Source: Candidatus Spongiihabitans sp. (GTDB lineage: Bacteria > Pseudomonadota > Gammaproteobacteria > Arenicellales > Poriferihabitantaceae). From it: a stretch of 64,000 nt of DNA. The notes under the pieces were generated by a model, which searched no databases, was not told the DNA's origin, and worked only from the letters and a program-made list of their open reading frames with translations. The position numbers and the translations under genes are program-made. Positions 18,720-37,897 of this stretch are shown piece after piece (position 1 is the stretch's first letter; each line of letters opens with the position of its first letter). The stretch lies in NCBI RefSeq assembly GCF_965247905.1, contig NZ_OZ252047.1:2518845-2582844 (forward strand), written 5' to 3'.

Positions 18720-19023
18720 TGTCTGGGTTCACCACATATGAGACAAAATCAGGTCGCCAAGGCGGGTTGCCGATAATACGCCATCGGCGTCATTAAATCC
18801 AAACTATCGTGTGGTCGGCATGATTATAGGTCCACTGGTAATGGACCAGTTCCTGGTTGATCGCGGTCACCTTCAACGGCCCTCGGCAGTGAGGCTTCAG
18901 CCTCGCCAAGTCATTGCCAAGATGGCGGGACTAAAGTCCCGCTTCCGACGCCGTCGGCCTGACCTGCTTTAAGCGCACTAGCCGGGCCAAGTCAACAGTC
19001 TCTTATGTGTCTGAGCCCGAACA
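18720..19023 (-). mobile_element. MITE copy 1 (IS481-like derivative, 304 bp)
   Basis: Ends TGTCTGGGTTCACCACATATGAGAC...GTCTCTTATGTGTCTGAGCCCGAACA; flanked on both sides by CCTAC. Confidence 0.9.
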
Positions 19024-19039
19024 CCTACCGATAAGCGGA

Positions 19040-20347
19040 TTAGTCCACAAAAGGATGCCGAACAATAATCGTATCGTCTCGCTCCGGGCCGGTAGAGATA
19101 ATATCAATCGGCGACTCTAAAAGCGATGACAGTCGATCAAGGTAGGCTTTGGCATTAACGGGCATGTGTTGATAATCTCTAATGCCTTTGGTGGGCTCCC
19201 GCCAGCCCGGCAGTTGCTCGTAGACGGGCTCGCATTGCGCCATGGCGTCGGCCCCGTAGGGCGGCAACTCGACCACTTCGCCGTGACAGCGATAGCCGGT
19301 GCATATTTTTACAACCTCAAGACCATCCAGCACATCAAGTTTGGTTATGCACAACGAAGTCAGCCCACATACTTGCCGCGCCCTGCGCAATGCCACAATA
19401 TCCAGCCAGCCGCACCGTCTCGGACGGCCCGTGGTCGCGCCGAACTCATGCCCTTTTTCGCCCAGGTGCTGGCCGGTGTCATCAAACAATTCTGTCGGAA
19501 AAGGGCCTGAGCCAACCCGCGTGGTATAGGCTTTGACCACGCCCAGCACCAAATCAATGTCAAGCGGGCCGATTCCAGTGCCCACGGCGGCGGCGGCGGC
19601 GGTGGTGTTGGAAGATGTGACATAGGGATAGGTGCCATGGTCGATGTCAAGCAGCATCCCTTGAGCGCCCTCGAACAATATCGATTTTCCCTGCGCTCGC
19701 AACTCATGCAAGCGCGCGGCGACATCGCCCAGCATCGGCTCAATCTGCTGCGCTTGCGCCAGGGATTGGTCTAATGTTTGTTGATAATCGATGGTGTCCG
19801 CGCCAAAAAAAGTCGCCAATGTATGGTTATGATATTCCATCACCTGCCGCAACTTGCTGGCGAACTTGTCGGGTTGGCGCAAATCGGCAAGCCGCAATCC
19901 TCGGCGCGCGATTTTATCTTCATAGCAGGGACCGATGCCGCGGCCAGTAGTGCCGATGGCGTGTTTGCCCTTGGCTTTTTCCCACGCCAAATCCAAGGCG
20001 CGATGATAGGGCATGATCATCGGGCAACCATAACTGACCGTCAAGCGCTCGCGAATATCAACGCGTTGCTGTTCGAGTTCTTTTATCTCGCTAAACAAGT
20101 GCGCCAAATCCACCACCACGCCATTGCCAATAAAACAGTCAACGCCGACGCGCATGGCGCCCGATGGAATCAGGTGCAACACGGTTTTCCGGCCGTTGAT
20201 CACCAGCGTGTGCCCGGCGTTATGCCCGCCCTGAAATCGGGCGACGGCATCGGCGCGCCGGGTTAAAAGATCGACGATCTTGCCCTTGCCCTCATCACCC
20301 CATTGCGTGCCGAGCAGCACAACATTTCTGGCGGCGTTCCTGGCCAT
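19040..20347 (-). CDS. purA: Adenylosuccinate synthetase
   Basis: [35 protein letters not shown]. Confidence 0.97.
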
Positions 20348-20354
20348 AACCTTA

Positions 20355-20410
20355 GGAAATTATTCTGAGGAAATTATTCTGATGCAAGGCTATTTGATGC
20401 AAGGCTATTT
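20355..20410. repeat. Two adjacent tandem duplications
   Basis: GGAAATTATTCTGA x2, then TGCAAGGCTATTT(GA) x2, between DUF2065 and purA. Confidence 0.85.
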
Positions 20411-20599
20411 CTAGCGCACGAAATACAACAAAACCACGCCCGCAACCATGCTTCCCAATCCAATGTTTCTGAGCGCGGATTCCGGCGCCGTGATCAAGTT
20501 TTGCATAATGCGCTTAAATGCGGCCGGGCTGAAAAACGGGGTAAACCCTTCCAGAATCAAATACAAGGCGAACGCGGCCAGCAGGTCTTCCCAGTTCAA
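20411..20599 (-). CDS. DUF2065 (YjeT-like) membrane protein
   Basis: WEDLLAAFALYLILEG...LRNIGL; usual position between hflC and purA. Confidence 0.85.
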   Translation of the reverse strand: MNWEDLLAAFALYLILEGFTPFFSPAAFKRIMQNLITAPESALRNIGLGSMVAGVVLLYFVR

Positions 20600-20681
20600 C
20601 GCCCGGCATTAAATTTTAAACGCAATGTTAAACCGGCCCTTGATTGAACCCTGAATCGAACGGCGAATAATCAAGCAAAAA

Positions 20682-21560
20682 CTAGTTGGCTGCAGCCGCT
20701 TCCGAACCCTTGAAATACTTGAAAAACGCTGAACTGGGATCGACTATGATTAAATCCTGTTTGCTGTTAAAGCTGTCTCGGTATGCATTAAGACTGCGGT
20801 ACAGATTATAAAACTCCTGATCTTTGCCGAATGTGGCGGCGTAAGCCGCGGTTGCTATGGCGTCGCCTTCACCGCGGATAATCTGCGCATCGCGGTCGGC
20901 ATTGGCCAGCAAAATTTCCCGTTGACGGTCGGCATCGGCGCGAATTTTTTCGGCCGCCTCTTCGCCTTGCGCGCGCAACTCTTTGGCCACGCGCTGCCGC
21001 TCTGCGGCCATGCGTTGATATACCCGTTCGCTAATCGCTGGATCCAGATCCACTCTTTTCAAGCGCACATCTATAATTTCTATTCCCAGCGTCGCCGCTT
21101 CTTCATTCATAATTTTCTGCACCACTTCCATAATTTGCTTTCTATCCCCGGAGATTACTTCTTGCACGGTACGCTTGCCGAACTCCTGACGCAGGCTGTC
21201 GTTCACGCGTTGCGACAAGCGCGATCTCGCGTTCTCCTTGCGGCCTTTCAATCTCGTGTAATACTGGTGCACATCCCTGATCTTCCATTTCACGAACGAA
21301 TCGACCACCAGATTTTTCTTTTCGCGGGTTAAATACAACTCTGGATCAGCATCCATAGTTTGCACCCGGGCATCAAAGTACTGGACATTGTTAATGAATG
21401 GAATTTTCCAGTGCAGTCCAGGTTTGACATCGGATTGCACAATCTCGCCAAACTTGAAGACGATGGCCTTTTCCCGTTCATCGACAAAGTATGCCGCGGA
21501 AAAAACGATGGCTCCGACAATCGCAACAAGTGCAAGAAGGAGTGTTAATTTAGCGTTCAT
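20682..21560 (-). CDS. hflC: FtsH modulator HflC
   Basis: PGLHWKIPF, LVVDSFVKWKI, RMAAERQRVA. Confidence 0.95.
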   Translation of the reverse strand: MNAKLTLLLALVAIVGAIVFSAAYFVDEREKAIVFKFGEIVQSDVKPGLHWKIPFINNVQYFDARVQTMDADPELYLTREKKNLVVDSFVKWKIRDVHQYYTRLKGRKENARSRLSQRVNDSLRQEFGKRTVQEVISGDRKQIMEVVQKIMNEEAATLGIEIIDVRLKRVDLDPAISERVYQRMAAERQRVAKELRAQGEEAAEKIRADADRQREILLANADRDAQIIRGEGDAIATAAYAATFGKDQEFYNLYRSLNAYRDSFNSKQDLIIVDPSSAFFKYFKGSEAAAAN

Positions 21561-21574
21561 GATTATTGCCCCGA

Positions 21575-36183: not shown

Positions 36184-36831
36184 ATGTCCAATTTGAAAGC
36201 CGAACTCCTCGCTATCTGCGTTCAAAACAACATTTTGCATTTCGGTGAATTCACCCTGAAATCCGGCCGCGTCAGTCCGTATTTCTTTAACGCCGGACTA
36301 TTCAATACCGGCGCGCTTTTGGGGCAACTCGCAACGTGCTACGCCGCACTCCTATCGGATAAACTAAAAAATGATTTCATGCTCTATGGCCCGGCTTACA
36401 AAGGCATCCCGTTGGTCGCCGCCACTGCGATACAGCTGGCGAACCGCCAACAACGCAACGTCGCCTATGCGTTCAATCGCAAGGAGACCAAGGATCATGG
36501 CGAAGGCGGCAACCTAGTCGGCGCCGCGCTTAACGGCGACGTGGTCATCGTTGACGATGTCATCACCGCGGGAACATCGATCGATGAATCGGTCAAAATC
36601 ATTAAATCAGCCGGCGCAAAACCCTGTGCAATCGCCATCGCCTTGGATCGCCAGGAAATCGCCGATGGCGACACTCACTCCGCTGTTCAAAAAATCGAGC
36701 GGCAATACAATGTGCCGGTATTATCGCTATTGAAGCTGGACGATTTGGTCGATTATCTGCAGTCGACTCAGGCATATCGACAATATTATGATGCCGTCGC
36801 CGCCTACCGTGATGCTTATGGAAGCAGATGA
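36184..36831 (+). CDS. pyrE: Orotate phosphoribosyltransferase
   Basis: FTLKSGRVSPYFFNAG, GPAYKGIP, RKETKDHGEGG, VDDVITAGT. Start set at ATG 36184. Confidence 0.95.
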   Translation: MSNLKAELLAICVQNNILHFGEFTLKSGRVSPYFFNAGLFNTGALLGQLATCYAALLSDKLKNDFMLYGPAYKGIPLVAATAIQLANRQQRNVAYAFNRKETKDHGEGGNLVGAALNGDVVIVDDVITAGTSIDESVKIIKSAGAKPCAIAIALDRQEIADGDTHSAVQKIERQYNVPVLSLLKLDDLVDYLQSTQAYRQYYDAVAAYRDAYGSR

Positions 36832-36897
36832 TGGCGTGCCGCCGATCGTTATGTCGCCGCAAGAATTAATCGCCCATGGCAAATATCATTGCAAACA

Positions 36898-37236
36898 TCA
36901 CAACGCATCATTATCCAGTTCACCGGTCCTGATTCGAATCGCCTGGTCCAAATCATAGACAAAGATTTTGCCGTCCCCCAACTTGCCGGTTTGCGAAGCC
37001 TGCACAATGGCGTCCACCACCTGATCCAGCCTATCGCTTGACACCGCGACTTCAAGTTTGACTTTTGGAACAAAATCCACCACGTACTCCGCGCCACGGT
37101 ACAGTTCGGCATGTCCTTTCTGTCGTCCAAATCCCTTGACTTCGGTTATGGTCATTCCCTGCACGCCTATTTCCGAAAGCGCATCCCTGACCTCGTCCAG
37201 TTTGAACGGCTTGATGATGGCGGTGATGAGTTTCAT
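36898..37236 (-). CDS. glnK: P-II nitrogen regulator (GlnK-like T-loop)
   Basis: 112 aa; [35 protein letters not shown]. glnB versus glnK assignment is tentative. Confidence 0.9.
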
Positions 37237-37280
37237 CAAAATTTTTTCAGGCAACAGGTGATATTTCGGGTCATATTTAA

Positions 37281-37357
37281 TGGCGCGCCCGGAGAGATTC
37301 GAACTCCCGACCCCCTGGTTCGTAGCCAGGTACTCTATCCCACTGAGCTACGGGCGC
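37281..37357 (-). tRNA. tRNA-Arg (ACG)
   Basis: GCGCCCG acceptor stem, CCTGG-CT-ACG-AA-CCAGG anticodon arm, GTTCGAAT T-loop, encoded CCA. Confidence 0.96.
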
Positions 37358-37574
37358 AACTTGGTCATTGGTCTAACAGTACCGAAATTGTGATGTTATT
37401 TCAATGGCAATAAAGTGACTGTACCGCACTTTATAGCTTGATTCCGGGAATAATAATCAAGCAGTGGACGGTTAACTGTTAGCGATAAGCTGACATCTCC
37501 TTTGCACATAACGCTCCAGTCAATGATTATCCGTATTCAATAAAATGTCGCGGCTGCGCCGCATGTGTCGCACT

Positions 37575-37604
37575 GGATTATTGGGTCAGGCCCGATAATG
37601 ACGG
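37575..37604. repeat. Short palindromic repeat
   Basis: GG-ATTATTGGG-TCAGG-CCCGATAAT-GACGG hairpin, enclosed by a GGCTGCG/CGCAGCC inverted pair. Confidence 0.55.
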
Positions 37605-37624
37605 TTATGATGAGTGCCGCAGCC

Positions 37625-37897
37625 ACCCGGCTCGGCTAGTGCGCTTAAAGCAGGTCAGGCCGGCGGCGTCGGAAGCGGGACTTTAGTCCCGCCATCCTGG
37701 CAATGGCTTGGCGAGGCTGAAGCCTCACTTCCGAGAGCCGTTGACGGTGACCGCGATCAACCAGGAACTGGTCAATTACCAGTGTGCCTATAATCATGCC
37801 GACCACACGATAGTTTGGATTTAATGACGCCGATGGCGTATTATCGGCAACCTACCTTGGCGGCCTGATTTTGTCTCATATGTGGTGAACCCGGACA
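37625..37897 (+). mobile_element. MITE copy 4 (one end truncated by ~30 bp)
   Basis: Same interior as the other copies; ends GTGAACCCGGACA; the other TIR is absent. Confidence 0.85.

Follow-up and report, generated by a model that had tools for sequence, protein, structure and literature searches.

The non-autonomous transposon that is present in four copies in the 64-kb stretch of DNA analyzed here in full (hereafter, the window) is very probably a derivative of an approximately 1.11-kb insertion sequence (IS) related to the IS481 family, descended from a single defective progenitor and copied into intergenic sites. The host is an uncultured sponge-symbiont bacterium, and the copies of this MITE lie between its housekeeping genes.

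Copies of the element and their structure

The four copies of about 300 bp listed in the preliminary description, starting at positions 18720, 24566, 32668 and 37625, were recovered by a repeat finder and by alignment, and their intergenic location in both orientations was borne out by the flanking genes and the alignment. With the strand given as the sense of the transposase remnant, copy 1 (18720..19023, minus strand; complete, 304 bp) is located between purA and an aldehyde dehydrogenase gene, copy 2 (24566..24867, minus strand; complete, 302 bp) between DUF938 and glnA, copy 3 (32668..32971, plus strand; 304 bp, with both inverted repeats) between a yggS-like gene and proC, and copy 4 (37625..37897, plus strand; 273 bp, truncated) between a tRNA gene and the ORF at 37949, that is, copies 1 and 2 point one way and copies 3 and 4 the opposite way. 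The full length of the MITE is 304 bp (range over the four copies, 273-304 bp); pairwise identity among the copies is 93.4-95.7%, with mostly singleton differences that form a star-like pattern, and their flanks are unrelated in the alignment. A 29-mer from the element has four matches in the window vs none expected from shuffles, and no fifth copy was detected within these 64 kb.

Imperfect terminal inverted repeats of about 25 bp with TGT...ACA ends had been attributed to the element, and such repeats, 26 nt in length, are present at both ends of copies 1-3, with the terminal A changed to G in copy 3; copy 4 lacks one of them. In the three copies that have both repeats, the similarity stops exactly at the TGT...ACA termini. 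Approximately 31 nt are gone from copy 4, namely IRL and about 5 further nt, and this copy adjoins a 170-bp window-specific segment (37456-37625).

The MITE is built of four parts. IRL (29 nt) is followed by a 46-nt piece of the central transposase gene, then by a hairpin module of 65 nt, and the fourth part runs from the final ~135 nt of the gene into IRR. In copy 1, IRR (TGTCTGGGTTCACCACATATGAGACA; 18720..18745, minus strand) is the end beside the transposase stop codon, and next to it is the C-terminal remnant (18749..18883, minus strand), which comprises the last ~45 codons, with the stop at 18749-18751 and a 1-nt deletion within 18804-18833. The remaining parts are the hairpin module (18884..18948), a 65-nt sequence of non-IS origin that is bounded by CGGCAG...CTTCCG and contains two GC-rich stem-loops; the mid-gene fragment (18949..18994, minus strand), 46 nt that encode ...LARLVRLKQVRP and match residues ~133-144 of the intact homologue P0001 (see below); and IRL (18995..19023, minus strand; ACAGTCTCTTATGTGTCTGAGCCCGAACA as read on the plus strand). 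The two inverted repeats of this copy, TGTCTGGGTTCACCACATATGAGACA and TGTTCGGGCTCAGACACATAAGAGAC, match at ~20 of 26 positions, with one indel and TGT...ACA ends.

There is no intact transposase gene in the MITE: all frames contain multiple stops, and two coding remnants are left, the C-terminal one ending in a stop that sits 5 nt before the inverted repeat. The frames reported previously, VTAINQELVH(Y/C)QWTYNH and, in the next frame, RPHDSLDLM(T/M)PMAYYRQ followed by a stop, were found again, except that copy 4 reads ...LVNYQCAYNH. The proposed kinship of this peptide to the tail of rve/IS481 transposases was upheld as well: once restored, the peptide matches Pfam rve_3 (E 6e-5, profile positions 41-67 of 67) and NCBIfam IS481 (E 9e-6, positions 252-283 of 284).

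Orientation relative to the downstream genes

In all four copies, IRR faces the next start codon on the same strand, at distances of 34, 137, 19 and 51 nt, and copies 1 and 3 are inside spacers that in relatives are very short and operon-like. Given also that the hairpin module folds into two stable hairpins (z about -3), the copies might be kept for host use, as a spacer compatible with read-through, an RNA-stabilizing hairpin or an outward promoter, in which case the orientation would reflect function. Such a role appears very unlikely. The chance of a 4/4 orientation is ~1/8 to 1/16, relatives do without the MITE at the corresponding positions, and purifying selection against polar orientations would produce the same bias without any function; moreover, consensus scans detected neither a sigma-70-like promoter nor an intrinsic terminator inside any of the copies, and a scan of the MITE and the hairpin module at the Rfam gathering thresholds matched no family.

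The parental insertion sequence

An IS of ~1.11 kb with the same ends as the MITE occurs in MAGs of related sponge symbionts (Ca. Spongiihabitans, Poriferihabitaceae), in L003 (658-1764), L009 (2752-3873), L038, L039, L043, L045 and L048 and, in an intact form, in L016; the parent with these terminal repeats that the preliminary description had anticipated is thus among the sequenced relatives. Between the inverted repeats, the copies of this IS span 1107-1133 bp, with the ends TGTCCGGG...CCCGGACA. Both ends of the MITE and its two interior segments are collinear with the full-length ISs of L003, L009 and L016, its IRR differs at 1-2 positions from that of the copies in L034, L038, L039, L045 and L048 (Poriferihabitaceae, Spongiihabitans), and the parent reads through the frameshift site uninterrupted (...QWTYNHYRPHDSLDLMTPMAYYQQ). 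P0001, the intact homologue from L016, is a single 335-aa ORF between inverted repeats that contains HTH_32 and rve_3 domains and carries STVGRILARLVRLKQVRP and ...YQWTYNHYRPHDSLNLMTPMAYYQQ, matching both coding remnants of the MITE. The element in the window is a derivative of this IS.

The full-length IS copies of this type detected in close relatives are all frameshifted, with a longest ORF of at most 251 aa, and some of these assemblies may hold long-read indel errors. Ca. S. thiooxidans has further deletion variants that share the ends of the IS (L007, 425 bp; L002, ~213 bp; and, with a different interior, L010, 69-526), which speaks for activity of the family in this clade.

The top NCBIfam model for P0001 is IS481 (NF033577), with 183.5 bits vs 87.7 for IS3, and the alignment spans the whole of this model (positions 2-283 of 284). 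The curated cutoff of NF033577 (224 bits) is missed by P0001, by P0002 (167.8 bits) and by the repaired L009 protein (144.8 bits); the nearest annotated plasmid homologues (from Thermus, Meiothermus and Octadecabacter) are 38-40% identical, and the PGAP name of the nearest plasmid-borne relatives is only 'integrase core domain-containing protein'. Because the score is below the cutoff and the nearest annotated homologues are this distant and generically named, the parent IS appears to represent a divergent clade with kinship to IS481, which in the present data occurs only in sponge-associated MAGs. Accordingly, the earlier view of the MITE as an IS481 deletion derivative stands insofar as a parent IS was found and IS481 is its best model, and needs to be amended with respect to the sub-cutoff score and the 65 nt of the interior that are foreign.

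An origin from an IS3-family element, or from another rve-type IS outside the IS481 family, could be considered given that the C-terminal peptide of the MITE also matches NCBIfam IS3 (E 5e-5) and Pfam rve_2, that the parent transposase is under the IS481 cutoff, and that TG...CA ends and 3-5-bp duplications can occur in IS3 elements too, according to ISfinder descriptions. However, the intact homologues of the parent have one 335-aa ORF in an IS of ~1.1 kb, with many such single ORFs containing PF13565 and PF13683 and none showing the orfA/orfB frameshift arrangement, and the IS481 model outscores the IS3 model by ~96 bits and is aligned over its entire length, so that assignment to a family other than IS481 is very unlikely.

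Insertion sites and empty sites in relatives

The window is collinear with two relatives (L014 and L015) over 14.9-40.4 kb. Copy 1 is flanked by the duplication CCTAC on the left (18715..18719) and its partner on the right (19024..19028), with a single GCCTGT at this site in the relatives, and copy 2 is flanked at both ends by TTAC (24562-24565 and 24868-24871). Clean empty sites were found for copy 1 in both L014 and L015 and for copy 2 in L015, L014 likewise being without the element; these sites are uninterrupted and have one copy of the target, vs CCTAC-MITE-CCTAC and TTAC-MITE-TTAC in the window. Both flanking duplications named in the preliminary description, as well as the empty sites it had predicted, are therefore present, and copies 1 and 2 entered these sites by insertion.

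Target duplications, of 5 bp and 4 bp, accompany two of the four copies. Copy 3 has none in its flanks and sits in place of ~100 bp present in relatives; copy 4 is truncated. Loss of the duplications of copies 3 and 4 by inversion between inverted copies was rejected on account of the collinearity of the region with both relatives. The state of copies 3 and 4, together with the dispersal of the hairpin module on its own and its tandem arrays, might be taken to indicate that recombination, segmental duplication or a mechanism that acts on this module spread the copies, and not DDE transposition dependent on the inverted repeats. This scenario is highly improbable given the similarity boundaries exactly at TGT...ACA in three copies with unrelated flanks, the direct duplication, at copies 1 and 2, of sequence that is single at the empty site, and the otherwise collinear synteny with relatives.

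Common origin of the four copies

A 1-nt deletion that changes CATT[A/G]CCG to CATGCCG and breaks YNHYRPH is found in 4/4 copies in the window and in 0/11 related elements, which have the 8-nt spacing intact except for one with a different lesion. It is a private mutation of these four copies, which therefore descend from one already defective progenitor; the earlier claim that the element spread after inactivation, made on the basis of the shared frameshift, is thereby substantiated. The deletion junctions and the hairpin module are identical in all copies as well, and the four copies share a common origin. Independent decay of four full-length IS copies, with no amplification of a short element, is effectively refuted despite the frequency of decayed or truncated IS copies of the same type in relatives, because the same two internal junctions, the same position of the 65-nt module and the same private deletion would not recur in this way.

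Given this evidence, the following course of events can be proposed for the transposition of a single defective progenitor. One IS copy would have lost ~75% of its transposase gene, retaining 29 nt of IRL, 46 nt of mid-gene sequence and the last ~135 coding nt with IRR, would have taken up, where the catalytic region was deleted, a hairpin repeat of 65 nt from the host genome, and would have suffered the 1-nt deletion in the YNHYRPH codons. The defective element would then have been copied into new intergenic sites, with a full-length relative supplying the transposase in trans, which would bind both intact inverted repeats and make the 4-5-bp target duplications. No transposase gene of the parental or any related IS is present in the 64-kb window, and it is for this reason that we only infer mobilization in trans; the route of acquisition of the hairpin module is likewise inferred. 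The insertions probably postdate the split from the two sequenced Ca. Spongiihabitans species, and the copies have since diverged by ~5%, one having lost an end and another a flanking duplication. With this divergence between copies, nothing points to activity at present. Among JGI metagenome contigs, neither a MITE-specific 28-mer across the 1-nt deletion nor the junction pattern of hairpin module and IS had a match.

The hairpin module

The 65-nt foreign hairpin repeat makes the MITE something other than a pure deletion derivative. The same module occurs free in the window (8437..8554; a full copy at 8437-8502 and a half copy at 8518-8554), between convergent msrA-like and SpoU-methylase genes. 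Its copies are solitary or clustered, extragenic, lineage-restricted and physically linked with IS elements; the solitary ones have the same sharp boundaries, and the arrays are direct head-to-tail repeats with a period of 78-80 or 108 nt. A CRISPR-like nature of these arrays was rejected, since what would be 'spacers' is one conserved linker of 14-16 nt and a unit of 64 nt is longer than a CRISPR repeat would be. Compensatory change was seen in only 3 of the 14 base pairs. Junctions of the module with IS sequence fall at three or more different IS coordinates (in the window MITE, L002, and L007/L012), and a tentative and rather doubtful reading is that this CGGAAG...CTTCCG module of Ca. Spongiihabitans/Poriferihabitaceae is a discrete mobile or recombinogenic unit that entered IS481-like elements repeatedly. 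If so, the MITE would be a chimera through which a hairpin repeat of the host is spread, and the uniform orientation of the copies could reflect a polarity-dependent effect of the hairpins on transcripts.

Comparison with known systems

The birth of this MITE can be traced in full: on view are the parent IS and intermediate deletion variants, as well as the private marker mutation, the duplicated targets and the empty sites. Its host lineage is one of uncultured sponge symbionts whose mobile DNA is not known to have been described. Knowledge of transposition itself is unchanged by it; its practical uses are in annotation, where such repeats are otherwise labelled as pseudogenized 'integrase' fragments, and in strain typing of Ca. 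Spongiihabitans, for which the copies provide insertion-polymorphism markers. The literature on Spongiihabitans yielded no description of the element, and a non-exhaustive search yielded no report of an IS481-family MITE.

Elements of the IS481 family, as described in ISfinder, are ~1-1.3 kb long, with inverted repeats that start with TGT and short duplications. The parent IS resembles them in its size of ~1.1 kb, its one ORF, whose product combines an HTH at the N-terminus with a DDE core of rve type that terminates in YNxxRPHxSLxxxTP, its inverted repeats beginning with TGT and its short target duplications, and differs in the score of its transposase (183.5 bits vs the cutoff of 224); moreover, the window holds only a non-autonomous derivative. 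REP/BIME repeats are imperfect extragenic palindromes that form clusters and are associated with a RAYT (Y1) transposase. The hairpin module is similar to REP/BIME in that it consists of short GC-rich hairpins and is intergenic, single or clustered, lineage-restricted and IS-associated; unlike REP/BIME, its arrays are direct head-to-tail rather than alternating, each unit has two different hairpins, and no GTAG-type REP signature was seen in the module.

Bacterial MITEs derived from an identifiable IS include RUP, from IS630-Spn1. Another is MiniMdi3 of Methylobacterium, an internal-deletion derivative of ISMdi3 (PMC2680597). Like these, the MITE in the window is a short element devoid of a transposase; its inverted repeats are those of its parent, two of its four copies have target duplications, and it is multicopy, intergenic and insertion-polymorphic between relatives. 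Unlike them, it keeps two separate coding remnants and a foreign 65-nt hairpin repeat. It is a clear but ordinary case of a known type of mobile DNA, in which only the embedded hairpin repeat and the uniform orientation relative to downstream genes are unusual.

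Copies in the window and their parent insertion sequence

The preliminary description had placed four MITE copies at 18720, 24566, 32668 and 37625, and a repeat search combined with MAFFT alignment recovered all of them: c1 (18720-19023, 304 bp), c2 (24566-24867, 302 bp), c3 (32668-32971, 304 bp) and c4 (37625-37897, 273 bp). Pairwise identity among the copies is 93.4-95.7%, and the differences are mostly singletons. A 29-nt MITE probe matched the window four times vs 0 matches expected from shuffles, and a probe for the opposite end, which is missing from c4, matched three times; no further copies were found in the repeat search of the whole window. 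c1 is flanked by purA and an aldehyde dehydrogenase gene, c2 by a DUF938 gene and glnA, c3 by a yggS-like gene and proC, and c4 by a tRNA and ORF 37949. As originally described, the termini are inverted repeats with TGT...ACA ends (26 nt, imperfect), and the frameshifted readings of a transposase C-terminus are present in adjacent frames of every copy, with a stop 5 nt before the inverted repeat.

Both MITE ends were found ~1.11 kb apart in two loci of the Poriferihabitaceae MAG, L003 (658-1764) and L009 (2752-3873). The gene between them, which contains multiple frameshifts, starts with a helix-turn-helix region (...KATYYRWLKRYQQHGW...), continues through ...GELIQIDHM... and then ...IQVDGGSEF..., and ends with ...INQELVHYQWTYNHYRPHDSLDLMTPMAYYQQ*, the end being uninterrupted in L009. 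The conceptually repaired transposase has 1695 homologues, many of them exactly 335 aa long and containing PF13565 (HTH_32) and PF13683 (rve_3); the closest (P0001, 80% identity) is the product of a single ORF flanked by matching inverted repeats on L016, an NCBI contig of 1285 bp. Among NCBIfam profiles, P0001 matched IS481 best, over positions 2-283 of 284, and IS3 after it (87.7 bits), the IS481 score of 183.5 bits being below the curated cutoff of 224. On plasmids, the nearest homologues with an annotation (38-40% identity) are named just 'integrase core domain-containing protein'; an 'IS481 family transposase' is listed at 32.5% identity. Given the score under the cutoff and these distant, generically named homologues, the parent is called here IS481-like rather than IS481, a designation that points to a divergent clade and does not certify family membership; with this qualification, the original proposal of an IS481 deletion derivative is supported by a parent with the same ends.

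In the Spongiihabitans and Poriferihabitaceae genomes, none of the full-length copies of this type contains an intact ORF, although some of these genomes are MAGs built from long reads, where indel errors may occur. Other sponge-associated MAGs encode intact 335-336-aa relatives with 59-72% identity and more divergent inverted repeats. The natural reading is that the MITE would be mobilised in trans.

IS30-like elements (ending ...NNRPRKCLGMKTPNQ) were also observed in L003 (1873-2872), L009 (3982-4981) and L014 (7244-9749), a locus of a Ca. Spongiihabitans relative syntenic with the window. In the Poriferihabitaceae MAG they adjoin the IS481-like copies and are apparently frameshifted; in L014, two inverted copies lie within a 5.7-kb insertion, at the position of which the window has a class-V aminotransferase gene alone (29369-30550).

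Anatomy and single origin of the MITE

Alignment to L016 and L009 resolves the MITE into five parts, which in transposase-sense order run from high to low coordinates in c1: IRL (18995-19023, 29 nt); a 46-nt mid-gene fragment (18949-18994) encoding ...LARLVRLKQVRP, the counterpart of STVGRILARLVRLKQVRP in P0001; a 65-nt hairpin module without a counterpart in the IS (18884-18948); the last ~45 codons and the stop (18749-18883, ~135 nt); and IRR (18720-18745, 26 nt). At the YNH-Y-RPH codons, all four copies read CAT-GCC-GAC-C vs CAT-T(A/G)C-CG(A/G)-CC, with the loss of one T that was seen in 0 of the 11 related elements examined; two loci of S. thiooxidans (L007 and L012) show the intermediate spelling CATTGCCG. 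Given the identical junctions and the private 1-nt deletion, all four copies derive from one progenitor that was defective beforehand, in agreement with the earlier suggestion of spread after inactivation. The evidence supports the MITE as a non-autonomous IS481-like derivative that was amplified once already defective.

Further short elements in S. thiooxidans share the MITE ends, including one of 425 bp that contains the hairpin module (L007 4750-5174) and one of ~213 bp (L002 3221-3433); L012 carries a long decayed IS into which the hairpin module is inserted. A second MITE-like element, also in S. thiooxidans (L010 69-526), has nearly the same inverted repeats and a different interior, which includes a GC-rich palindromic stretch and, on the reverse strand, the C-terminus of another transposase (...YNAIRPHKGLGLKTP...). 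L014 contains an isolated IRR fragment of 96 bp, with the orthologous region a few kb away.

Host range and evidence of transposition

A search of 185,579 species genomes with a MITE 24-mer yielded matches exclusively in sponge-associated MAGs, namely Ca. Spongiihabitans thiooxidans (LFLB01), Ca. Spongiihabitans sp. (NZ_OZ250154.1), a Poriferihabitaceae bacterium (CBDFMY01) and one Halieaceae MAG. The 14.9-40.4 kb part of the window is collinear with both Spongiihabitans genomes at 82-90% DNA identity, and the 1241-aa AsmA-like protein shows 81-82% identity to its orthologues in these two genomes; the window therefore represents a third, related species.

The syntenic loci of these relatives, L014 and L015, contain empty sites for c1 and c2. 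At site 1, both relatives read ...ATAATATATA-GCCTGT-CGATAAGCGG... and the window reads ...GCCTAC[MITE]CCTACCGATAAGCGG...; at site 2, they read ...CTT(A/G)(C/T)TACCA(G/T)ACATG... and the window reads ...ATTATTAC[MITE]TTACCCCGATGCAC.... The flanking duplications reported originally, CCTAC for c1 and TTAC for c2, are present on both sides of the respective copies. Each of the two sites forms a textbook occupied/empty pair, the duplication being 5 bp long at the first and 4 bp at the second, and two insertions are therefore proven, both younger than the split from the sequenced relatives. Given the ~5% divergence between copies, the burst is not very recent. The third copy stands in place of ~100 bp kept in the relatives and shows no duplication. 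The fourth lacks IRL and abuts a 170-bp segment (37456-37625), located between tRNA genes 37284-37357 (-) and 38388-38475 (-), that the syntenic L015 lacks and that matches nothing else in the window or among the retrieved loci; this segment may be the remnant of another insertion that removed IRL from c4.

Orientation and sequence context

In all four copies, IRR faces the same-strand start codon of the next gene, at distances of 34, 137, 19 and 51 nt. With n = 4, this uniformity is only suggestive and could equally result from selection against polar orientations. The spacers that hold c1 and c3 have very short counterparts in the relatives, so transcription of the downstream aldehyde dehydrogenase gene and of proC must either pass through the element or originate in it. 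Consensus scans identified no promoter-like or terminator-like consensus in c1-c4, and the MITE has no Rfam match.

Short tandem repeats are unusually numerous in the window (45 TRF rows over the 64 kb). Their periods are 10-16 nt, many are perfect, and most lie in intergenic DNA. Examples are found at 16486-16586 (14 nt x7.2), 44752-44796 (GTTTA x9), 44897-44944, 24430-24462, 36004-36051 and 5694-5757, and one repeat, TAAATAACCTC x3, is found immediately upstream of glnA, close to c2. Elsewhere, an Rfam PYLIS_3 match at 51848-51947 (-), above gathering at 53.4 bits, falls inside an uninterrupted 528-aa MttB-family ORF (51429-53015; Pfam MTTB, E 2e-108). Because no stop interrupts its frame, this ORF probably encodes an MttB homologue of the non-pyrrolysine kind, the match reflecting coding-sequence similarity.

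The hairpin module and comparison with known repeats

The 65-nt module has CGGAAG...CTTCCG ends and two GC-rich stem-loops (z about -3, folded as DNA), and is confined to the Ca. Spongiihabitans/Poriferihabitaceae clade. Solitary modules with sharp boundaries occur at L020 ~5730-5794 and L022 ~262-325, and direct tandem arrays with a period of 78-80 or 108 nt at L010 760-1560, L018 1345-1685, L019 60-682 and L021 7364-7988; in the window, one full unit (8437-8502) and one half unit (8518-8554) lie between convergent genes (8437-8554). The stems are highly conserved over 44 copies, with compensatory change in just 3 of 14 pairs. Inside IS-derived elements, at least three different IS positions are joined to the module, and the array in L010 is immediately adjacent to a C-terminal fragment of an IS (1561-1580). 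The module may have entered the MITE either by insertion or by recombination of the IS with an array.

A non-exhaustive literature search found neither a published IS481-family MITE nor a description of repeats in Ca. Spongiihabitans. To the known MITE type, the present elements add the foreign hairpin module and the orientation pattern. The module itself resembles REP/BIME repeats in behaviour but differs from them in arrangement.
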